In this document: positions 1 to 7,564 of the stretch, piece after piece
Layout: the number at the start of each line of letters is the position of its first letter
Numbering within the stretch: position 1 is the first letter of the stretch
DNA from: Actinomycetota bacterium
Lineage (GTDB): Bacteria > Actinomycetota > CADDZG01 > WHSQ01
Length of the DNA: 64,000 nucleotides
Assembly (NCBI GenBank): GCA_036260375.1
Contig: DASZZZ010000065.1
Span: forward strand, 1,675-65,674
Reading direction: 5' to 3'
The notes under the pieces: generated by a model
What the model was told of the DNA's origin: nothing
Database searches by the model: none
What the model saw: only the letters and a program-made list of their open reading frames with translations
Position numbers and translations under genes: made by a program

Positions 1-176
1 CCGAGCGTCACGGGGGCGTTGACGATGTCGGTGACCTGCAGGTTCGGCAGGTCGGGGACGAGCTTGAACGTGATCGGGGCGAGCGGGTCGTCGGGCGTGC
101 CGGACGGCTCGATGCGCAGCGACGCGGCGAGCGCCCTGAGCTGCGACAGGATCGTCGGCGCGGTCTCGGTCGTCAC
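1..176 (-). CDS. hypothetical protein, N-terminal part (gene continues beyond the left edge)
   Basis: Minus-strand reading frame runs off the window. GTG at 174-176 is preceded by AAGGAGG 6 nt upstream. Nearly every codon ends in G/C. N-terminus reads VTTETAPTILSQLRALAASLRIEPSGTPDD... No family recognised. Confidence 0.55.
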   Translation of the reverse strand, partial: MTTETAPTILSQLRALAASLRIEPSGTPDDPLAPITFKLVPDLPNLQVTDIVNAPVTL

Positions 177-210
177 GTAGGTCCTCCTTGCCGGTACGGG
201 GGTGTCGGGA

Positions 211-438
211 TCAGGCCTGCGACGTCAGGTACATCTCGTCGCCGGAGCTGACGAGACGGTCGCCGACCGCGACGTCGATCCTGTTCTCGCCGCCATGCGT
301 GAAGCGCGCCGTCATCGTCCCGGCGGACGAGAACGACGCCTCCCAGCCGTAGTCCCTGATGGCGAACGTGTGCGGCGGGAGCTCGAGCATGGTGACCGAG
401 CGCTTGTTGATCCACACGACGGGCGTGGCACGAGGCAA
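211..438 (-). CDS. hypothetical small protein (75 aa)
   Basis: Track ORF with a TTG start and AGAAGGGA 7 nt upstream. Composition is normal, unlike the Arg-rich overlapping frames. Its stop lies 34 nt before the next minus-strand start, so the two are probably co-transcribed. No family recognised. Confidence 0.55.
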   Translation of the reverse strand: MPRATPVVWINKRSVTMLELPPHTFAIRDYGWEASFSSAGTMTARFTHGGENRIDVAVGDRLVSSGDEMYLTSQA

Positions 439-640
439 TTGTCTGTCCCTTCTCTTTGGGGCCGGCGGTCCGCGCGGGCCGGAGGACGTGCGACCGCTCC
501 GCGGAGGCCGTTCGGCCGGCGGCGGACGGGTGAGCGAGCGAGCTTACATGCGCTTTACTAACTGGCCTGACAGCACCGCGCGACGGCCGGCGACACGTGC
601 GCGCGTCGCCGGGGCGGGGGGCGCGGGGGGCCGGGCGCGA

Positions 641-670
641 CGAAGGGGCGGCCGGCCGACCGCCCCTTCG
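641..670. terminator. GC-rich perfect hairpin (11-bp stem, 8-nt loop), possible U-tract-less terminator
   Basis: CGAAGGGGCGG (641-651) pairs with CCGCCCCTTCG (660-670). It lies about 100 nt downstream of the small minus-strand ORF 771-857. Neither strand has a T-run. Confidence 0.4.
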
Positions 671-770
671 CGCCTTCCGCGCGATCGGAGTCGCTAGGAG
701 ATGCGCTCCTCGTCGCGAGGCCGGCCGGCGGGCATCGCCGCGTCTGCGGCGATGGCGCCGATGCGGGACG

Positions 771-857
771 TCAGTCCCACGGGAACCCGAAGCTGGCGCC
801 GGCTGCGAGCCACAGCGCGGCGACGGTTGCCGCGAACGCGTACGCGCGCGTCCTCAT
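771..857 (-). CDS. candidate secreted pro-peptide (28 aa), MRTRAYAFAATVAALWLAAGASFGFPWD
   Basis: Not in the ORF track because it is under 60 aa. ATG at 855-857 has AGAGGGGGGA 6 nt upstream. 25 of 27 codons end in G/C. The product has a basic n-region, a hydrophobic core, an A-G-A motif and then a 7-residue tail. An in-frame upstream ATG at 929 would give 52 aa, but that stretch has poorer GC3 and an SD too close to the ATG. Confidence 0.4.
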   Translation of the reverse strand: MRTRAYAFAATVAALWLAAGASFGFPWD

Positions 858-1150
858 GGTCGATCCCCCCTCTGCGCAGGTCCTCGTCGGTGATGCCAGG
901 TCACTCCCACGGCGACGTCTGTTGCCCATCACCTCCCTCCCCATCCTTCCCCACGGCCCGCGTACGGGCGGTCGTCCGCGTCCTCGACGAGCGGGCTCGC
1001 TCGGGCAAGCGACTCGTCTAGCAAGAAGCTAACGAAGATGCTAAAGAAATGCCACCGCCGTCCCCAAACTTTGACGACCCTGTTCCTTTCGCCGGGTGGG
1101 CCGTGTGGGTACACTCCCGGCAGGACGGACGTGGGGACGGGAGACGGCCT

Positions 1151-2431
1151 ATGACGCTCGGCGAGCGCCTCCGGCGGATGCGCGTGGCACAGGGGATGAC
1201 TCAACGCGACCTCGCGTCGCCACGCTATACGGCAGCCCATGTGAGCACGGTCGAGTCGGGCCGCCGGCAGCCGTCCCCCGAGGCGCTGCAGTTCTTCGCG
1301 CGCAAGCTCGGCGTCACGGCCGACGAGATCGCGTCGGGACGCTCGCCCGAGATGGTCACGTCGCTCCGCGAGGAGCTCGTCAAGGCGCGGCGCGCGGTGT
1401 CGTCGGGGCGCGTCGGCGAGGCGCGCGAGGCGTACGGCAGCATCACGCGCCGCGCCGCACGCCACCGTCTGACCGACATCCGCACGAGCGGCGAGCTCGG
1501 CCTCGCGCTGTGCAGCCTGCGCGCGGGCGACGTCGGCGACGCCCTGCAGACCTACGAACGCATCGAACGACGGCTCGCCGACGAGCCCGTCGGGACGCGC
1601 GTCGACGCGATCGTCGGCAAGGCGGCGTGCCTGCGACGGATGGGCGAGGTGCAGCACGCGATCTTCGTGCTCGAGGGCGTGCGCGACGAGCTGCTCGCGG
1701 CAAAGACGCGCGACCGCTCCGCGCTGTTCAAGATCCACGCCGCGCTGGTTGCGCCGTACTTCGAGGCGGGCGTGCTCGGCCGTGCGCGCGATGCCGCGAC
1801 GCGCGCCGTCGACCTCTCGTCGCGTCGCGACGACCCGGAGCATCTCGGGCTCGTGCACCTGTACGCGGGGCGAACGCACCTCTCCGAACGCGACTTCGAC
1901 GCCGCGTGCGAGTCGTTTCGCACTGCGCGCGACTACTTCGAGAGCGCGGACCTCCAAGTCGAGGTCGGGCGCGCCCACCTCGCACTGGGGTTCGCGCTCG
2001 TACGCGAGGGGCGGACCGACGGGGCGCGCGCGGAGCTCGATCGCGCGAGCGAGATCTTCCGCACGACCGACAGCTCGCTCGACGAGGCTCGCACGCTCAC
2101 CGAGATCGCGAAGCTCGCACGCGCCGAGGGCCGCGTGGACGACGCCGTGACGGTGCTGCGGCGCGCCGTCGAGCTGCTCGACTCCTCCGTCGACGTGACG
2201 GAGCTGGCGGGCGCGCACCAGGAGCTTGGCGACGCGCTCCTGGACACGGAGCCGGACAAGGCGGAGAAGCACTTGCGCAAGGCCGTCGCGCTGTACGAGA
2301 AGACGGGAGCGAACATCCAGCTCGCCCACACGAGGCTGCTGCTCGGCGAGATCTTCCAGCGCCGGGGCGACGTACAGGCTGCGTGCGACCAGTTGAGGGC
2401 CGGAGTAGCGTTCCTCGACTACCGCAGCTGA
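1151..2431 (+). CDS. XRE-family HTH transcriptional regulator with C-terminal TPR-like repeat domain (426 aa)
   Basis: The N-terminus LGERLRRMRVAQGMTQRDLA...HVSTVESGRRQPS is a classic HTH_3/XRE motif. The rest is all-helical, Ala/Leu/Arg-rich and repeats every ~34-40 aa (TPR-like). I chose the ATG at 1151 (MTLGERL) over the track start at 1049. Confidence 0.85.
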   Translation: MTLGERLRRMRVAQGMTQRDLASPRYTAAHVSTVESGRRQPSPEALQFFARKLGVTADEIASGRSPEMVTSLREELVKARRAVSSGRVGEAREAYGSITRRAARHRLTDIRTSGELGLALCSLRAGDVGDALQTYERIERRLADEPVGTRVDAIVGKAACLRRMGEVQHAIFVLEGVRDELLAAKTRDRSALFKIHAALVAPYFEAGVLGRARDAATRAVDLSSRRDDPEHLGLVHLYAGRTHLSERDFDAACESFRTARDYFESADLQVEVGRAHLALGFALVREGRTDGARAELDRASEIFRTTDSSLDEARTLTEIAKLARAEGRVDDAVTVLRRAVELLDSSVDVTELAGAHQELGDALLDTEPDKAEKHLRKAVALYEKTGANIQLAHTRLLLGEIFQRRGDVQAACDQLRAGVAFLDYRS

Positions 2432-2503
2432 CCGTCTCGCGAGTCGATCGAGCGACGCGCGCCGGCGCACGGAGGCGGGGCCGCGGGCGGGCGAACGTTC
2501 CAG

Positions 2504-3871
2504 TTACGCGAAGCCGAAGCGTTCGTAGTGGACGCGTGACTCGGGCACGCCCTTGGCCAGCAGCTGCGTCCTCAGGTTGTCGATCATCGCCGGCGGACCG
2601 CAGATCAGGACGTCGGCGTCGAGGCCGCTGTCGCGCTCGATCCAGTCGGCGGTGACGAACCCGACCTCGTCCTCGGGGGCCGGGACGACCCGCAGGTGCT
2701 CGGTGCGCCGCGCGAGCTCCTCGAGGTCGCCGAGGAAGTACGCCTCGGCCCTCGTCTTCGCGCCGTAGTACAGGTCGACGTCGTACGAGCCGTCGAGGCT
2801 GCGCGCCATGCTGAGGAACGGCGTGATGCCGATGCCGCCGGCGACCCACACCTGGCGGCGGTTCGCGACCTTGGTGTGGGAGAAGTCGCCGTAGGGCCCC
2901 TCGATGCGGGCCCACGCCCCCGCCCGGAGGTGATGGAGCGCAGCGGTGAAGTCGCCCACCGCCTTCACCGCGATGCCGAGCCGCTCGTCGCCCGGCGCCG
3001 ACGTGATGGAGAACGGGTGGTACTGGTCGCGCGCGTCGCCGGGTCTCAGGGTCACGAGCGCGGTCGAGCCCTGCGACGCGACGGAGACGGGATGGAAGCG
3101 CGCGTCGAGCTCGTCGGAGTAGAAGGTGACGAACACGAACTGGCCCGGCACGAAGCGGAGCCCGCCGTCCTGTGGCGCCATCGCGATCTCGACCACGGAC
3201 GGGTCGAGCTCGCGCACGGACGTCACGCGGTAGTCGCGGCGCCGTACGAGCAGGTTGCCGAACACCGACCGGTAGCCCCACGCCGCGACCGCCGTCAGCG
3301 CGGCGACGGCGAGGAAGACGGTCAGCGCGCGCGACGACGACTTCGCCCCCGGCGTCGTGAAGACGTGGTACGCCGCGATCGCGAAGAACACGCCGAACGA
3401 ACGCTGGACGTAGACGAACAGCTCGTGGCTCAGGCGCGCGTAGAGCGTGAGCGCGAGCGCGACCGCCATGCCCCCGAACGCGACGATCCCCGCCCACACC
3501 GTCCATCCCGCCGACGGCGTGAACAACGAGACCGCGCTCGACGGCGACGACGCCGCGCGCCCGGCGACGACGAACACGACGTGCACCAGCACGAGCACGA
3601 ACGCGACGCGGCCGTTCCGGCGGTGCAGCGCGTACATTCGCTCAAGCCCGCCGAACAACGCCGTCACCGATCGCAGCCGCGCCCCGAGCAGCAGGTTCGC
3701 CGCGTACGCGGTCGCGCCGGCGAGACCGCACGCGACGCCGATCGTGGTGAGCGAACGCGCGGCCCCCGCGACGCGCTCGTCGAGCGGAACCGAGGCCAGC
3801 CACAGGACGACCGGCGCGGCGTAGAGCGCCGCGAGGAGCGCCACCCCCCGGAGTGCGACTCGAGTCTTCAT
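2504..3871 (-). CDS. ferric reductase-like transmembrane protein fused to FAD-/NAD(P)-binding domains (NOX/FRE-type oxidoreductase)
   Basis: The N-terminal half has six hydrophobic segments with paired His (YALHRRNG..LVLVHVV, AAYHVF). The C-terminal half is FNR-like with HPFSITS (FAD), GGIGITPF (NAD(P)H) and a C-terminal ERFGF. Confidence 0.85.
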   Translation of the reverse strand: MKTRVALRGVALLAALYAAPVVLWLASVPLDERVAGAARSLTTIGVACGLAGATAYAANLLLGARLRSVTALFGGLERMYALHRRNGRVAFVLVLVHVVFVVAGRAASSPSSAVSLFTPSAGWTVWAGIVAFGGMAVALALTLYARLSHELFVYVQRSFGVFFAIAAYHVFTTPGAKSSSRALTVFLAVAALTAVAAWGYRSVFGNLLVRRRDYRVTSVRELDPSVVEIAMAPQDGGLRFVPGQFVFVTFYSDELDARFHPVSVASQGSTALVTLRPGDARDQYHPFSITSAPGDERLGIAVKAVGDFTAALHHLRAGAWARIEGPYGDFSHTKVANRRQVWVAGGIGITPFLSMARSLDGSYDVDLYYGAKTRAEAYFLGDLEELARRTEHLRVVPAPEDEVGFVTADWIERDSGLDADVLICGPPAMIDNLRTQLLAKGVPESRVHYERFGFA

Positions 3872-3996
3872 CGCCGCGCAGTGTCGCGCCTCGCCCGGAC
3901 GACGAATCGCTCCGCGACCCGGCGGGTATGCATCGCGCGGCCCAGCCCGGCCGGCCGCCCACGGCGGCCGTCCTACGGAGCGAGGAGGTTCGTCCC

Positions 3997-4509
3997 ATGA
4001 CCCACCGCAAGGACGACGACCGGGGCTCGTGGCTGGCGACGGTGACGGCGTTCGCCGGCGGCGCCCTCGCGATGTTCCTGTTCGACCCGCAGCGCGGACG
4101 CACGCGTCGCGCTCGCATCGGCGACAAGGCGACCAAGCTCGTCAACCGCTCGTCGCAGAAGACGGCGCGCGCTGGCCGTCGCGTCGCGTCGCAGGCGTAC
4201 GGCGCAAAGCAGAAGGCCGCGCACGCCGGCGACGAGCAGACGCTGCCGCCCAACGACCAGGCGCTTGCGGCGAAGGTCGAGAGCGAAGTCCTGAGCCGCG
4301 GCCGCTTCCCGAAGGGGCGCGTCAGCGTCAACGCCGAGGACGGCATCGTCGTGCTGCGCGGCGAGCTCGACGACCCCGCGCAGATCGCCGACCTGGAGCA
4401 GCGCGTGCGCAAGGTCACCGGCGTGCTCGACGTCCAGAACCTGCTACACCTGCCGGGCGAGCCGGCGCCCAACAAGGAGGACGCGCTGCGGGCGACGAGG
4501 CAGCAGTAG
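3997..4509 (+). CDS. BON domain-containing membrane-associated protein
   Basis: ATG at 3997 follows GAGGAGG. One N-terminal TM segment (WLATVTAFAGGALAMFLF). The C-terminal part VSVNAEDGIVVLRGELDDPAQIADLEQRVRKVTGVLDVQN is BON-like. Confidence 0.75.
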   Translation: MTHRKDDDRGSWLATVTAFAGGALAMFLFDPQRGRTRRARIGDKATKLVNRSSQKTARAGRRVASQAYGAKQKAAHAGDEQTLPPNDQALAAKVESEVLSRGRFPKGRVSVNAEDGIVVLRGELDDPAQIADLEQRVRKVTGVLDVQNLLHLPGEPAPNKEDALRATRQQ

Positions 4510-5383: not shown

Positions 5384-6781
5384 ATGACCGAGCGGCTCGT
5401 CGTCATCGGGGGCGACGCCGCGGGGATGAGCGCGGCGTCGCAGGCGCGCCGCCGCCGTGCGCCGGACGACCTCGAGATCGTCGCGTTCGAGCGCGGTCGC
5501 TTCACGTCGTACTCGGCGTGCGGCATCCCGTACTTCGTCGGTGGCGACGTGCCGCGCCTCGAGTCGCTCGTGATGCGCTCTCCCGAGCGGTTTCGCGACC
5601 GCTATGCGATCGACGCGCGTACGCGCCACGAGGCCATCGAGATCGACCTCGGCCGGCGCGCCGTGAGAGTGCGCGGCCCCGAGGGAGACGAGTCGTGGAC
5701 GGCGTTCGATCAGCTCGTCGTCGCGACCGGAGCGCAACCCGTCCGCCCGCCGCTGCCCAACGCCGACGCTCGCAACGTCTTCGGCGTCCAGACGCTCGAG
5801 CACGGCATCGCCATCGCGGAGGCGCTCGACGACGTCGCGCCGGAGTCCGCCGTCGTCGTGGGCGGGGGCTACATCGGTCTCGAGATGGCCGAGGCGTTCG
5901 TCAAGCGAGGTCTGCGCGTCGCCCTCGTCGAGGCCGCCGCGCAGCCGATGTCGACGCTCGACCCCGACATGGGCGGGCTCGTCACCGACGCGTTGACGGA
6001 CATGGGCATCGACGTCCACCTCGGCGAGCGCGTCGAGGGCTTCGAGACGCGCGGAGGCGCGGTCTGCGCGGTCGTCACCGAACAGCGCACGCTGCCGGCC
6101 GACGTCGTCGTGTTGGGCCTCGGCGTGCGTCCCAACGTCGCGCTCGCCGAGGCGGCGGGCATCCCGATCGGCCCGAGCGGCGCGATCGCGGTCGACCGCC
6201 GCATGCGGACGCGCGTCGACGGCGTATGGGCCGCCGGCGACTGTGCGGAGAAGTTCCACCGCGTCGCGCGCAAGCCCGTGGCGATCGCGCTCGGCACGCA
6301 TGCGAACAAGGAGGGCCGTGTCGCGGGCGTCAACATCGGCGGCGACTACGCGACGTTCCCCGGCGTGCTCGGAACCGCGGTGTCGAAGTTCTGTGCGATC
6401 GAGGTCGGCCGCACGGGGCTGCGCGAGGCCGAGGCTCTGGGCGCGGGCTTCTCGCCTCTTGGAGTCGTCGTGGAGTCGACGACGCGCGCGTCCTATTACC
6501 CCGGCGGCACGCGCATCGACGTCAAGCTCGTCGTCGAGCAGTCGTCGGGGCGCCTGCTCGGCGCGCAGATCGTGGGCCGTGAGGGCGCCGCGAAGCGCAT
6601 CGACGTGCTCGCGACGGCGCTGTGGGCGGAGATGAGCGTCGACGAGATCCTCAACCTCGACCTGTCGTACGCGCCGCCGTTCTCTCCGGTGTGGGACCCG
6701 GTGCTGATCGCGGCGCGCAAGGCGTGGGCGCGCGTCGAGGAGGTCCGGGACGGGCGCCCGCCGGCGCGCGCCGACGCGTAG
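5384..6781 (+). CDS. pyridine nucleotide-disulfide oxidoreductase, CoA-disulfide reductase / NADH oxidase family
   Basis: VVIGGDAAG FAD motif, single redox Cys context YSACGIPY, second dinucleotide motif VVGGGYIGLE, and GDCA. Start moved to ATG 5384 (MTERLVVIGG). Confidence 0.85.
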   Translation: MTERLVVIGGDAAGMSAASQARRRRAPDDLEIVAFERGRFTSYSACGIPYFVGGDVPRLESLVMRSPERFRDRYAIDARTRHEAIEIDLGRRAVRVRGPEGDESWTAFDQLVVATGAQPVRPPLPNADARNVFGVQTLEHGIAIAEALDDVAPESAVVVGGGYIGLEMAEAFVKRGLRVALVEAAAQPMSTLDPDMGGLVTDALTDMGIDVHLGERVEGFETRGGAVCAVVTEQRTLPADVVVLGLGVRPNVALAEAAGIPIGPSGAIAVDRRMRTRVDGVWAAGDCAEKFHRVARKPVAIALGTHANKEGRVAGVNIGGDYATFPGVLGTAVSKFCAIEVGRTGLREAEALGAGFSPLGVVVESTTRASYYPGGTRIDVKLVVEQSSGRLLGAQIVGREGAAKRIDVLATALWAEMSVDEILNLDLSYAPPFSPVWDPVLIAARKAWARVEEVRDGRPPARADA

Positions 6782-6790
6782 GATGCGGCC

Positions 6791-7564
6791 GTGGATGCGC
6801 TCGCACTGCTCGACGTCGCGGTGGAGGCCGCGCACCGCGCCGGCGCGCTGCTGTTGGAGCGGTTCGCCGCGCCGGCGACGGGCATCGAGACGAAGACGTC
6901 GCCCACCGACGTGGTCAGCGACGCGGACCGCGCGTCGGAGCGGCTGCTCATGGACCTGCTCGCGTCGGAGCGGCCCGACGACGGCGTCGTCGGGGAGGAG
7001 GGCGCACGGCGTCCGTCGCGCTCGGGCGTGCGCTGGGTCGTCGACCCCCTCGACGGCACGGTGAACTACCTCTACGGCATCCCGGCGTGGTGCGTGTCGA
7101 TCGCGGCCGAGGACGACGACGGCGGCGTCGCGGGCGTCGTCTTCGACCCGTCGCGCGACGAGACGTTCGCCGCCGCGCGCGGTCACGGCGCGCGCCTCAA
7201 CGGCACCGAGGTGCGCGTGTCCGAGCGCACCGAGTTGTCGGCCGCGCTCGTCGCCACGGGCTTCGGCTACGACGCCGGCCTGCGGGCGGCTCAGGGACAA
7301 GTCGTCGCGCGCGTGCTGCCGCGTGTGCGCGACGTCCGCCGCGGGGGCTCCGCGGCTCTCGACCTCGTCTCGGTCGCGTGCGGACGGGTCGACGCGTTCT
7401 ACGAGGCGCACATGAACCCGTGGGACCGCGCCGCCGGGCAGCTCGTGGTGCGCGAAGCGGGCGGCGTCGTCACGGAGCTGCGCGACCCGACCGGCGTCAG
7501 CGACGGCGTCGTCGCCGGCCCCCGCGCGCTGCACGACCGCCTGCGCGTGCTCGTCGACCCGTAG
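6791..7564 (+). CDS. inositol monophosphatase family protein
   Basis: DVVSDADRASE, WVVDPLDGTVNY and GSAALDL motifs of the IMPase/SuhB family. GTG start. Confidence 0.9.
   Translation: MDALALLDVAVEAAHRAGALLLERFAAPATGIETKTSPTDVVSDADRASERLLMDLLASERPDDGVVGEEGARRPSRSGVRWVVDPLDGTVNYLYGIPAWCVSIAAEDDDGGVAGVVFDPSRDETFAAARGHGARLNGTEVRVSERTELSAALVATGFGYDAGLRAAQGQVVARVLPRVRDVRRGGSAALDLVSVACGRVDAFYEAHMNPWDRAAGQLVVREAGGVVTELRDPTGVSDGVVAGPRALHDRLRVLVDP

Follow-up and report, generated by a model that had tools for sequence, protein, structure and literature searches.

Within the window, by which the whole 64-kb stretch of DNA analysed here is meant, a regulator gene on the plus strand (1151–2431, 426 aa) is accompanied by a small ORF on the minus strand, which runs from an ATG at 857–855 to a TGA at 773–771 (28 codons plus the stop) and is regarded as a putative propeptide gene. 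The two genes are divergent, their start codons are separated by 293 nt and no gene lies between them. The translated product of the small ORF is MRTRAYAFAATVAALWLAAGASFGFPWD, in which a basic n-region (MRTR), a hydrophobic core (AYAFAATVAALWL), a small-x-small stretch (AAGA) and an aromatic-Pro tail (SFGFPWD) can be distinguished. A Shine-Dalgarno sequence (AGAGGGGGGA, 864–873, minus strand) is placed 6 nt from the ATG. The small ORF is one of only two ORFs in the window ending in [WFY]Pxx-stop. It is missing from the annotation track, and no Pfam or NCBIfam model matches any of the small-ORF peptides discussed below. A preliminary description of the locus, made from sequence alone, had pointed out the regulator, the small ORF with its Shine-Dalgarno sequence and codon usage, a downstream hairpin, and a dyad in an AT-rich patch between the genes; all of these sequence-level statements held.

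The regulator combines an XRE-type HTH with nine TPR-like hairpins. The HTH was recognized by Pfam as HTH_31 at aa 3–61 (nt 1157–1333, 9.3e-11), and several TPR domains were above the cut-off (TPR_12 with 6.6e-17, TPR_2, TPR_14, and TPR_MalT with 6.8e-12). In the AlphaFold2 model (pLDDT 90.9, pTM 0.81) 18 helices form the nine hairpins over aa 68–423, and neither a signal peptide nor a transmembrane segment was seen in this all-helical model. The start at 1151 is backed by an alignment of 10 homologues and has GGGAG 8 nt upstream; the full-length homologues in the alignment are 419–440 aa long.

The preliminary description had taken the large share of codons ending in G or C as a sign that the small ORF is a real gene. 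The numbers were correct (26 of the 28 sense codons, or 25 of 27 without the ATG), but the argument failed: 25% of random 28-codon stretches from the same window reach at least 26 of 28, so that the high GC3 of the small ORF is not evidence of coding. It had also proposed that a genuine gene should recur at the same divergent position beside related regulators and should evolve as coding sequence, and both expectations held. The comparison set consisted of 63 loci with regulator relatives (35–97% identical), nearly all from uncultured Actinomycetota. A scan of species genomes with the single regulator sequence found nothing, and a metagenome scan with the window regulator protein returned only two matches, both distant TPR proteins; an alignment-based scan of the species genomes provided 56 genome loci. 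MAGs account for 53 of these, almost all of them carrying the label Actinomycetota or Actinomycetes, and Streptomyces for 3. Among cultured strains, Streptomyces sp. NBC_01171 (L055) and NPDC006314 (L053) possess a relative of the regulator together with a divergent small ORF that has a putative signal. By inspection, a divergent small ORF was present at the equivalent position in 45 of the 63 loci, pairing with regulators down to about 35% identity amid differing neighbour genes, and it was absent within 3 kb in 17 of the 62 loci having enough upstream sequence. In the 45 loci the small ORF encodes 28–40 aa and lies 128–370 bp from the regulator, and in nearly all of them an ATG is found with a GGAGG-type site 4–12 nt upstream. 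In three loci (L003, L004 and L006) it had already been annotated by independent gene callers. The orthologues of the window peptide are MRTRMYAFAATVAGLWLAAGASFGFPWD in L001 and MRTRICAFAATVAALWLVAGASFGFPWD in L002, and the peptide of L003 is MELFTRAYAWLAAFVAVFVASGGDGWPWN. A longer reading of 57 aa from an ATG at 944 was rejected, since it is not conserved and an upstream in-frame stop bounds the 28-aa ORF in L002.

A strict definition of the small ORF was also applied, requiring 20–45 aa read from an ATG or GTG, a Shine-Dalgarno match of 4/5 or better, K/R ahead of a hydrophobic core and [WF]P behind it. For 40 of the 63 related regulators this signature occurred within 500 nt upstream on the divergent side (31 kb searched), and it occurred not once in 783 kb of other sequence of the same loci, both strands included. 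Residues and codons were tallied in 32 distinct genes whose tail ends in [AGS]-W-P plus two or three residues. Trp and Pro are invariant in these tails, A/G/A at -5/-4/-2 are retained in 27–29 of the 32 genes, and Asn is found at -1 in 20. The codons of the kept tail residues vary (GCC 14, GCG 13; GGC 18, GGG 5, GGA 3, GGT 1), as do those of the Pro (CCG 17, CCC 12, CCT 2, CCA 1), and across the small-ORF family changes are more frequent at third codon positions (919) than at first (673) or second (591) ones. In one rival explanation, the frame of the small ORF is open merely by chance, in intergenic DNA of high GC content; the uninformative GC3, the absence from the annotation track and the lack of a database family can be cited in its favour. 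Against it stand the occurrence upstream of the regulators and its absence from the control sequence, the conservation of start, ribosome-binding site, frame and length, and the invariant tail residues with varying codons across regulators that are only 35–40% identical. The chance reading is refuted by these comparative data and can be all but excluded. The small ORF at 771–857 is a real, constrained coding gene that is translated, as established by comparative evidence without expression data.

All 45 peptides share a common plan of a basic N-terminus, a hydrophobic core, a small-x-small stretch and a short aromatic-Pro tail, which is NWPKH in most loci and SFGFPWD in the window. The n-region charge is +2 in the window peptide and +3.1 on average in the family, the hydrophobic plus c-region extends over 14–21 residues, and small residues occupy -3/-1 in 42 of the 45 peptides, 33 of which have a tail of 4–7 residues. 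Thus the signal peptide claimed in the preliminary description is matched by a signal-peptide-like n/h/c layout seen family-wide; this rests on heuristic checks only, export is inferred, and an uncleaved transmembrane helix is not excluded. In L035 and L044 the ORF has a strong ribosome-binding site and the peptide contains [WFY]P units in repeat, but it is leaderless, without any hydrophobic segment, so Sec export is not universal in the family. The best-conserved part of the peptides is the tail together with the preceding A-G-x-A, not the hydrophobic core. Lipoprotein and Tat signals were considered and rejected: no peptide has the Cys of a lipobox (L-[AS]-[GA]-C) after the small-x-small stretch, Cys being found only as a terminal CC in some clades, and no consistent RR motif of the twin-arginine type (S/T-R-R-x-F-L-K) is present among the peptides. 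As a separate observation, passengers as short as 5–7 residues are unusual for Sec and signal peptidase I, which speaks against the export reading.

The tails differ between clades. Five tail classes (SFGFPWD, GDGWPWN, DRYPWR, NWPxH and NWPxDD..CC) each map to one regulator clade, a match also expected from plain co-inheritance of linked genes. One MAG contains two modules with differing tails, NWPRH in L020 and NWPHH in L058. Some members have two tail units (NWPILGWPHD, NWPLNLIGWPEC), others have tails of 16–17 residues, and in some clades the tails end in CC.

These features bear on the main rival reading, namely that the product of the small ORF stays uncleaved as a mini membrane protein, single-pass and N-in/C-out, and that there is no peptide signal. 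The Trp/Pro tail would then be an interfacial anchor and the HTH-TPR protein a local regulator sensing something else. This reading is supported by an uncharged stretch of 19–23 residues with K/R inside and Trp plus K/H or D outside, as is typical of short transmembrane helices; in the window peptide, the uncharged segment A5–W27 is long enough for such a helix. Furthermore, regulators and their targets often remain adjacent, and linkage alone explains the concordance of tails and clades. However, conservation peaks in the extracytoplasmic tail and the helix-breaking A-G-x-A and not in the core, L035 and L044 keep their [WFY]P units without any hydrophobic segment, and the double tail units and 16–17-residue tails fit a released ligand better than an anchor. 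We consider the mini membrane protein unlikely.

Downstream of the peptide gene, about 100 nt from its stop, a GC-rich hairpin with a perfect 11-bp stem (arms 641–651 and 660–670, minus strand) is likely to mark the transcript end of the peptide unit. The transcript 620–775 of the minus strand folds at -95.8 kcal/mol (z = -3.6 against shuffles), and homology between the window and its closest relative L001 (97%) ends left of about 620, just past the hairpin. The stem noted in the preliminary description was thus confirmed, but it gives weak support, as it lacks a U-tract and was not called by a consensus terminator scan. Between the hairpin and the peptide gene, a second ORF (694–780, minus strand) begins with a GTG within the last codons of the first one and encodes VGLTSRIGAIAADAAMPAGRPRDEERIS, the hydrophobic core and the aromatic-Pro tail having been lost. 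An intact counterpart in L002 (3484–3570, MGLTARLVALVATLAAPFGVAGRGFPWS) has the same start, frame and 87-nt length, and the two are identical at 42 of 87 nt without gaps, compared with a random mean of 25.9 (sd 5.1). From these data we infer that 694–780 is the decayed remnant of a translationally coupled second propeptide ORF. On the upstream side, a long 5' leader of the peptide mRNA (858–1024, minus strand) is inferred, its transcription start included. The motif TCCCACGG from the 3' end of the small ORF (775–782) has a second copy in this leader at 905–912, possibly debris from duplicated peptide units, and the leaders of L001 and L002 contain about 65–75 extra nt with further reading-frame tails of the types ..PWD, ..PWE and ..WPWN.

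The 3' flank also bears on a second rival, in which the small ORF is a cis-acting leader or ribosome-arrest peptide similar to TnaC, whose W-P-x-x-stop would stall ribosomes to control genes downstream on the same strand. In its favour, the ORF is very short with its strongest conservation beside the stop, Trp and Pro near the stop resemble TnaC, and in a large clade a gene lies 3–125 nt after the small ORF. In about 19 loci the product of this gene is a conserved protein of about 68 aa, and in 7 loci it is a YaeF-like protein, a permuted papain-like enzyme of 265–340 aa. In the window clade, however, no gene is found 3' of the small ORF, only two hairpins followed by non-homologous DNA. Moreover, the N-terminal half is conserved in its basic-plus-hydrophobic character, which would be needless inside the ribosomal tunnel, and the distance from WP to the stop is not fixed, ranging from 2 to 14 residues among loci. 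The TnaC-like signature is therefore not met in the window clade; it is not excluded family-wide, given the downstream gene in other clades, and we regard this rival as very unlikely overall.

Between the two genes a shared control region (1019–1055, not assigned to a strand) is a candidate operator for the HTH of the regulator, protein binding being inferred. It contains the dyad TAGCaagaaGCTA (TAGC-N5-GCTA) at 1019–1031, in the lowest-GC stretch nearby (0.56), and a direct repeat GCTAA-N7-GCTAA with its copies at 1028–1032 and 1040–1044. Promoter-like hexamers that would serve the peptide gene (minus strand; -35 GTGGCA at 1055–1050, a spacing of 18 nt and -10 TAGCTT at 1031–1026) overlap the dyad and the repeat. 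The element is nearly identical in the window, L001 and L002, with invariant GCTAA repeats and one change in the dyad spacer of L002, and the TTAGC/GCTAA half-site recurs in a second module of L002, in L003 (GCTAA-N7-GCTAA) and in L065 (TTAGCAT-C-ATGCTAA). In other clades an analogous GTTAC/GTAAC is 27-fold enriched in intergenic regions (6.85 vs 0.25 per kb). For the regulator gene, a -10-like hexamer TACACT (1110–1115, plus strand) is inferred 35 nt before the ATG; it is invariant in the window, L001 and L002, and the same GTTACACT element is equally placed in L006, L016, L024 and L030. A strict consensus promoter and terminator scan of 400–1250 found none. Because the E. coli-type consensus and the U-tract rule are unsuited to this GC class, the promoter statements rest on cross-locus conservation. 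No RNA family of Rfam was found in 1–4500.

The neighbours of the pair differ among loci, for example MerB/MFS in L001 and L002 and MDMPI_N/DUF983 in L003, with others elsewhere, and neighbourhood clustering found no gene linked to the pair across all clades. Neither the conserved protein of about 68 aa nor a 75-aa ORF at 211–438 of the window is matched by a Pfam or NCBIfam model. A third rival holds that the small ORF encodes a RiPP precursor, with a Trp/Pro/His/Cys core modified by enzymes encoded elsewhere and the regulator controlling the pathway. The shortness of the peptide, its conserved C-terminal core with many modifiable residues, the variants ending in CC and the permuted papain-like enzyme gene after the peptide gene in 7 loci are in line with this. 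On the other hand, genes for a maturase, a radical SAM enzyme, a cyclodehydratase or a dedicated transporter are neither conserved beside the pair across clades nor present near it in the window, no precursor family of Pfam or NCBIfam matches, and the N-terminal half resembles an export signal rather than a RiPP leader. A RiPP precursor is thus also very improbable. Two further candidates were rejected: a toxin-antitoxin pair of type I or II, with which the size of the regulator, the divergent gene order and the leaderless variants do not agree, and a bacteriocin, as a mature part of 5–7 aa is too short.

The preliminary description had read the pair as an RRNPP-like system, i.e. a propeptide and its cytoplasmic receptor, and this reading is supported, while release, re-import and binding to the regulator remain inferred. 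The published RRNPP signature comprises a peptide of 10–100 aa, secreted by Sec or, for the SHP/PrgQ type, via PptAB, and a receptor of 250–500 aa with TPRs at a spacing of -60 to 400 bp (PMC10075063). Four of its five criteria are met here, namely the small peptide (28 aa), the receptor length (426 aa), the TPRs and the adjacency (293 bp). For the fifth, Sec export, heuristic checks alone are positive, with L035 and L044 lacking a leader. Genetically encoded peptide signals read by cytoplasmic TPR receptors are treated as characteristic of Firmicutes, together with the phages and plasmids of this group (PMC10075063). A host among the Bacillota/Firmicutes or their mobile elements is a criterion that is not met, the host being an uncultured Actinomycetota MAG, whose Mfd protein is 100% identical to one that NCBI assigns to an Actinomycetota bacterium, and the core genes around the pair are chromosomal. 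No oligopeptide importer (Opp) genes were found among the 36 proteins of the 64-kb window scanned against Pfam.

The resemblance of the regulator to RRNPP receptors held in part. Of the 50 Foldseek matches listed, phi3T Rap (8rsv, 0.69), NprR (5dbk, 0.68, a match spanning 360 columns) and RapF (4i9c, 0.67) reach the highest target-normalised TM-scores, and the PlcR-PapR7-DNA structure (3u3w) is also included with a lower TM-score of 0.50. Ranked by Foldseek E-value, generic TPR proteins (APC, LGN) come first. The sequence similarity is that of generic HTH and TPR domains: a profile search against PDB sequences gave Rap and NprR with 2e-5 to 7e-5 and designed or eukaryotic TPRs with 1e-10 to 1e-13. 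Of the RRNPP receptors, PlcR matched best by sequence, with a profile E-value of 1.4e-7 for a match confined to the HTH, and over the C-terminal TPRs a weak collinear profile similarity to NprR was observed (E 4e-5). Since generic or designed TPRs outscore Rap and NprR by sequence, and generic TPRs lead by Foldseek E-value, homology to RRNPP receptors has not been demonstrated.

Among the named systems, NprR-NprX of the Bacillus cereus group has a receptor of nearly equal length (about 423 aa) in which an XRE-type HTH likewise precedes about nine TPRs, and the adjacent nprX gives a propeptide with a signal, of which 7–8 residues make up the active peptide. Unlike that system, the present one belongs to Actinomycetota and not to Bacillota, shows no specific sequence homology to it and has divergent genes, whereas nprX is downstream of nprR; NprX is internal to a 43-aa precursor, whereas the putative active part here is at the extreme C-terminus of 28 aa. 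PlcR-PapR, also of the Bacillus cereus group, consists of an HTH-TPR activator and an adjacent propeptide with a Sec signal, to which the putative propeptide here corresponds, and its PapR7 (ADLPFEF), a C-terminal heptapeptide containing aromatic residues and Pro, occupies the same position in the precursor as SFGFPWD does here. PlcR has only 5 TPRs in 285 aa, and PapR is 48 aa long with a pro-region trimmed by extracellular proteases, whereas here no pro-region exists and the tail directly follows the small-x-small stretch.

In the Rgg-SHP and ComR-ComS/XIP systems of streptococci, the propeptides (17–35 aa) begin with a basic N-terminus that is followed by a hydrophobic body, and their C-terminal 7–8 residues form the pheromone; shp is often divergent from rgg, and in type II XIPs a Trp motif is found at the C-terminus (..LDWWSL). 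A summary of the short-hydrophobic-peptide class and of its export by PptAB is available (PMC10075063). The present pair shares the very short propeptide, the basic N-terminus, the hydrophobic body, the putative C-terminal signal position and the divergent gene with these systems, and the absence of a Sec signal in ComS is paralleled by the leaderless L035 and L044 peptides with their WP repeats. In contrast, Rgg and ComR are about 285–300 aa long with a different, shorter repeat domain, and SHP tails are hydrophobic and not aromatic-Pro-polar. Export and processing by PptAB and Eep are not known from Actinomycetota. Rap-Phr and AimR-AimP of Bacillus and its phages also have a TPR receptor encoded beside a propeptide, which in their case is exported by Sec and yields a 5–6-residue C-terminal peptide, the length of NWPKH. 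Phr pheromone units are known in tandem duplication, which the duplicated or decayed peptide units of the window and L002 resemble. Rap differs in that it has no HTH, contains a 3-helix bundle and acts on proteins, with phr downstream of and overlapping rap, and AimR is without an XRE-type HTH fold of this kind.

On balance, we favour by a modest margin the reading of the pair as an RRNPP-like propeptide and its cytoplasmic receptor, in which export, processing, re-import and binding are inferred and no expression data are available. The minus-strand gene (857 to 771) would be translated to the 28-aa pre-peptide, whose basic N-terminus and hydrophobic core would bring it into or through the membrane. 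It would then be cut after the small-x-small stretch (most relatives ..AG[STA]A/NWP[KRHN]H, here ..AAGA/SFGFPWD), either by signal peptidase I or by an intramembrane protease of the kind that processes SHP-type pheromones, leaving an aromatic-Pro peptide of 5–7 residues outside the cell. At sufficient concentration the peptide would be taken up and bind the regulator on the concave side of its TPR superhelix, altering how the XRE-type HTH engages the GCTAA/TAGC half-sites at 1019–1044. Since these half-sites lie between and over both divergent promoters, the pair would autoregulate; the peptide may activate or relieve repression, either direction being compatible. The cassette is proposed to evolve by duplication and decay of peptide units, the tail diverging together with the receptor clade.

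Cell-to-cell signalling in Actinomycetota has been described as small-molecule based. The author of the preliminary description was not aware of a described case in a genome of this GC class, and no report of RRNPP-type systems in Actinomycetota was found in the literature searched, which was a limited library. A bolder reading, against which the balance still tips slightly, makes a joint claim. In it, the pair would represent the first RRNPP-type peptide quorum-sensing family outside Firmicutes, widespread in uncultured soil Actinomycetota, with an aromatic-Pro code (NWPKH, NWPRH and NWPHH, SFGFPWD here, and longer variants terminated by ..CC) and with new specificities arising from tandem duplication and decay of propeptide units and from divergent paralogous pairs within a genome. 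If the signalling interpretation is wrong, the small ORF still represents a micro-protein family that is new, under strong conservation and for the most part without annotation. As signals, unmodified peptides of 5–7 residues are predicted, which can be purchased; the receptor would be a single soluble protein and a candidate operator lies between the genes. If the reading is true, it would extend the paradigm to a second major Gram-positive phylum, across dozens of uncultured actinobacterial species, and would provide a first handle on communication in soil lineages without cultured members.

The regulator gene (1151-2431, + strand) encodes a protein of 426 aa in which an XRE-type helix-turn-helix (Pfam HTH_31 at aa 3-61, 9.3e-11) is followed by TPR matches above the Pfam cut-off (TPR_12, 6.6e-17; TPR_MalT, 6.8e-12). 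In the AlphaFold2 model (pLDDT 90.9, pTM 0.81), for which the input alignment consisted of ten homologues, five HTH helices are followed by 18 helices arranged as nine TPR-like hairpins; the protein is of cytoplasmic type, an HTH joined to a TPR superhelix. The family seemed rare at first, as a word-indexed search gave 18 hits of which about ten were clear full-length relatives; a profile search against 1.84 billion cluster representatives retrieved 739 clusters at E <= 1e-30, comprising well over 100 full-length members. In databases these proteins are named only 'helix-turn-helix domain-containing protein' or 'TPR repeat protein'. The window belongs to the chromosomal core of an uncultured Actinomycetota MAG. 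Its housekeeping genes include those for MetRS, L25, enolase and Mfd, and a protein that NCBI names as from an Actinomycetota MAG is 100% identical to this Mfd. An 88-nt tRNA-Arg(tct) called by ARAGORN at 3770-3857 (- strand), overlapping the 5' end of a ferric-reductase-like ORF (2504-3871), is probably a false call, since an Rfam scan of positions 1-4500 found no tRNA there.

Divergent from the regulator lies a small ORF of 28 codons (ATG 857 to TGA 771, - strand; product MRTRAYAFAATVAALWLAAGASFGFPWD), with its start codon 293 nt from that of the regulator and the ribosome-binding site AGAGGGGGGA located 6 nt upstream of the ATG. It was compared across 63 loci, namely the window, six contigs obtained from proteins of the first search and 56 species-representative genomes retrieved with the regulator alignment as query (three Streptomyces and 53 MAGs, almost all of which bear the label Actinomycetota or Actinomycetes). 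A small ORF occupies the same divergent position in 45 of the 63, with a start-codon spacing of 128-370 nt, and it had already been called independently by gene callers in L003 (29 aa), L004 (32 aa) and L006 (25 aa). Under a strict definition (ATG/GTG start, Shine-Dalgarno match of at least 4/5, 20-45 aa, and K/R, then a hydrophobic core, then [WF]P), it was present in 40 of the 63 upstream regions (31 kb searched) and had no match on either strand in the other 783 kb of the same loci. Frames ending in [WFY]Pxx-stop occur only twice in the whole 64-kb window. In 32 distinct genes the tail is [AGS]-W-P with two or three further residues; W and P never vary among them, A/G/A at -5/-4/-2 is retained in 27-29 and Asn occupies -1 in 20. 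At conserved residues the third codon position is free to vary (GCC 14, GCG 13; for Gly, GGC 18, GGG 5, GGA 3 and GGT 1; for the tail Pro, CCG 17, CCC 12, CCT 2 and CCA 1), and within-clade pairs sum to 919 changes at the third position versus 673 at the first and 591 at the second. The small ORF evolves as coding sequence and is a real, constrained gene; a chance open frame is contradicted by both this distribution and the coding-type evolution, and can be practically ruled out. The preliminary description had also relied on G/C-ending codons. Its count, 25 of 27 without the ATG (26/28 with it), was right but has no weight as coding evidence, since one in four random 28-codon windows of this DNA scores as well; its sequence-level statements on the regulator, small ORF, ribosome-binding site, hairpin and dyad were all correct.

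All 45 products follow a four-part plan. Met and a basic n-region, whose net charge averages +3.1, come first and are followed by a core without charges; then come small residues that break the helix, usually as A-G-[S/T/A]-A (positions -3/-1 hold small residues in 42), and finally a short tail built on an aromatic-Pro pair. The product combines a signal-like front with a conserved tail of aromatic-Pro type. Among the tails NWP[K/R/H/N]H is the most frequent; SFGFPWD of the window clade is two residues longer, and other tails are GDGWPWN (L003), DRYPWR (L012, L013, L017), HWPKCC and PWPPCC (L015 and L046), and the two-unit NWPILGWPHD and NWPLNLIGWPEC (L021 and L051). In a seven-locus clade (L036, L038, L040, L042, L045, L047, L050) the small ORF lies about 160-180 nt upstream of the regulator, and (N/D/E/Q/G)(W/F)P is followed by 13 residues ending in CC. 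The tail of these seven, 16-17 residues long, reads (N/D/E/Q/G)(W/F)PxDDxxxxLGGxxCC, always with two terminal cysteines; a disulfide, metal or lipid role of the terminal CC is conceivable. Tail class tracks regulator clade, and two modules in one MAG have different tails (L020 NWPRH, L058 NWPHH). Known Phr, AimP, PapR and NprX signals are similar in size to the predicted released peptides of 5-7 residues.

Leaderless divergent small ORFs were observed in L035 (about 1638-1694, - strand; MPDWPDGVPPILNDYPWD) and L044 (about 2748-2807, - strand; MGDFPEIWPENWPHDYPWG). Each has a strong ribosome-binding site, no hydrophobic leader and 2-4 repeated [WFY]P units, and in L035 an ECF-type sigma factor gene is next on the small ORF's strand. 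It could be argued that the small ORF encodes a regulated mini membrane protein, since the uncharged stretch could be a transmembrane helix; this is unlikely, as the leaderless and multi-unit variants suggest that function centres on the aromatic-Pro unit rather than on the membrane segment, and therefore favour a ligand over a membrane anchor. The readings of the product as a TnaC-like leader peptide or as a RiPP precursor are rated lower still, both being very improbable beside the ligand reading.

The pair of regulator and peptide gene is kept while its neighbours differ, these being MerB/MFS genes in L001 and L002, MDMPI_N and DUF983 in L003 and others elsewhere, and clustering of neighbouring ORFs gave no third gene common to all clades. 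The small gene is specifically linked to this regulator family. It is followed by a perfect 11-bp GC hairpin (641-651/660-670). Homology between the window and L001 (97% identical) spans the regulator, the peptide gene and the hairpin and is absent beyond about 620; the cassette including the terminator behaves as a unit. A comparison of window 1-620 with L001 2685-3330 places a rearrangement boundary at the cassette edge: to the left of the hairpin, MerB (organomercurial lyase) and an MFS transporter are encoded in the 97% and 81% relatives, but a 75-aa ORF of unknown family (211-438, - strand) in the window.

No peptide gene was found within 3 kb in 17 of the 62 loci having enough upstream sequence, and these regulators may be 'orphan' receptors. 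The L007-L010 clade has instead a divergent cysteine-synthase-like gene (upstream 100-600 nt), and L008 and L010 share MAGs with the peptide-bearing L013 and L017. Two Streptomyces relatives from cultured strains (L053 and L055; regulators 33-34% identical), which lack a WP peptide, carry a divergent conserved ORF of 65-67 codons (2660-2863 and 2668-2865, respectively, both - strand), whose product has a hydrophobic core as well as an A-R-A site and about 15 tail residues (..PARAADTAPAAVQHVHR); they offer a potential experimental entry point. In the NWPxH clade, a gene for a conserved protein of about 56-102 aa (..ERRIYRLGxxVFRVWxDR...WVWTPIPSGSI..) lies 3-125 nt after the peptide gene on the same strand (L006 1805-2011, - strand; L016, L020, L023, L024, L026, L027, L030, L031, L033, L034, L037, L039, L052, L057, L058, L060). 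It has no Pfam or NCBIfam match, and might act as a third component of the system or else be its first target. A sub-clade (L014 1635-2648, - strand; L004, L018, L019, L028, L054, L059) has in this place a gene for a 265-340-aa protein that is similar at its N-terminus to permuted papain-like enzymes of the YaeF family (a partial NCBIfam match of 7.8e-9, below cut-off) and is conceivably a peptidase with the propeptide as its substrate.

An intact second propeptide ORF was observed in L002 (3484-3570, - strand; MGLTARLVALVATLAAPFGVAGRGFPWS), and its GTG inside the last codons of the first ORF suggests translational coupling. An ORF of the same start, frame and length occurs in the window (694-780, - strand) and in L001, with a decayed product (VGLTSRIGAIAADAAMPAGRPRDEERIS). 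Since the second ORF is intact in one locus and decayed in the others, peptide units likely undergo tandem duplication and decay. L002 also has a second complete module (5400-6995) directly downstream of the first regulator. Its peptide (..IKARLFAFAATIAAFWSVAGADFPWD) has a strong GGAGG site but ATC at the expected start codon, its paralogous regulator is split by a frameshift (HTH in frame 5390-6100; TPR part, protein P0006, 5955-6995), and the TTAGC repeats recur in its control region; the module is probably either an assembly error or a duplicate in decay. The octamer TCCCACGG, which is complementary to the P-W-D/E codons at the small ORF 3' end, occurs twice within 130 nt (775-782 and 905-912), with 6 copies in the whole window versus about 3 expected. 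Extra copies lie in a 65-75-nt insertion of the same leader in L001 and L002, in frames ending ..PWD, ..PWE and ..WPWN.

The least GC-rich stretch nearby contains the dyad TAGCaagaaGCTA (1019-1031). TAGC-N5-GCTA and GCTAA-N7-GCTAA (1019-1044), as well as TACACT 35 nt before the regulator ATG, are common to the window, L001 and L002, where the element is nearly identical, with one change in the L002 dyad spacer. The TTAGC/GCTAA half-site is also found in the second L002 module, L003 (GCTAA-N7-GCTAA) and L065 (TTAGCAT-C-ATGCTAA); the related GTTAC/GTAAC shows a 27-fold enrichment in the intergenic regions of the other clades (6.85 vs 0.25 per kb), and several loci have it arranged as palindromes. 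A promoter-like pair, TTGCnn-N17-TACATT, is present 35-45 nt before the small-ORF ATG in about 22 loci. Because the repeats overlap promoter-like elements of the peptide gene, 'operator' and 'promoter' cannot be separated, and binding of the HTH to the repeats is inferred.

The published computational signature of RRNPP systems comprises five criteria (PMC10075063). Those on peptide length (10-100 aa), receptor length (250-500 aa), TPRs in the receptor and direct adjacency (-60 to 400 bp) are satisfied; for Sec or PptAB export, heuristic checks were positive, with nothing beyond heuristics. The receptor architecture is like that of NprR, and the C-terminal signal position is as in PapR and SHP. 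Among 50 listed Foldseek matches, the top target-normalised TM-scores were those of phi3T Rap with pheromone (0.69), apo NprR (0.68) and RapF with PhrF (0.67), and the PlcR-PapR7-DNA structure was also listed. Eukaryotic TPR scaffolds (APC, LGN) had better E-values but lower TM-scores than Rap/NprR; at the sequence level, designed and eukaryotic TPRs score above Rap and NprR, and PlcR matches the HTH only. Common descent with RRNPP families was not demonstrated by sequence or fold comparison, and that the cassette follows the RRNPP plan is favoured only by a modest margin. The host phylum is outside the known range of these families; Actinomycetota signals are typically small molecules (PMC10075063), and no report of an RRNPP-type system in this phylum was found in the literature searched.

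The mechanism is inferred from export onwards. The product would be exported and cleaved after AAGA, by signal peptidase I or SHP-like intramembrane processing, to release SFGFPWD; the peptide would be taken up and bind the TPR groove of the regulator, with autoregulation via the GCTAA repeats. Against this model, a passenger of 5-7 residues is short for Sec, the uncharged stretch might span the membrane as a helix, the concordance of tail and clade is also expected from linkage alone, some loci lack a peptide gene or have leaderless peptides, and no Opp importer is encoded in the 64-kb window.

The observation in the preliminary description was confirmed, and its RRNPP-type interpretation was supported by the comparative test it had proposed, that is, whether orthologues have the divergent small ORF. 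On balance, we lean towards regarding the cassette as a new variant, at phylum level, of RRNPP systems in their design. With at least 45 loci the family is not a singleton, and the cassette merits experimental follow-up with synthetic peptides.
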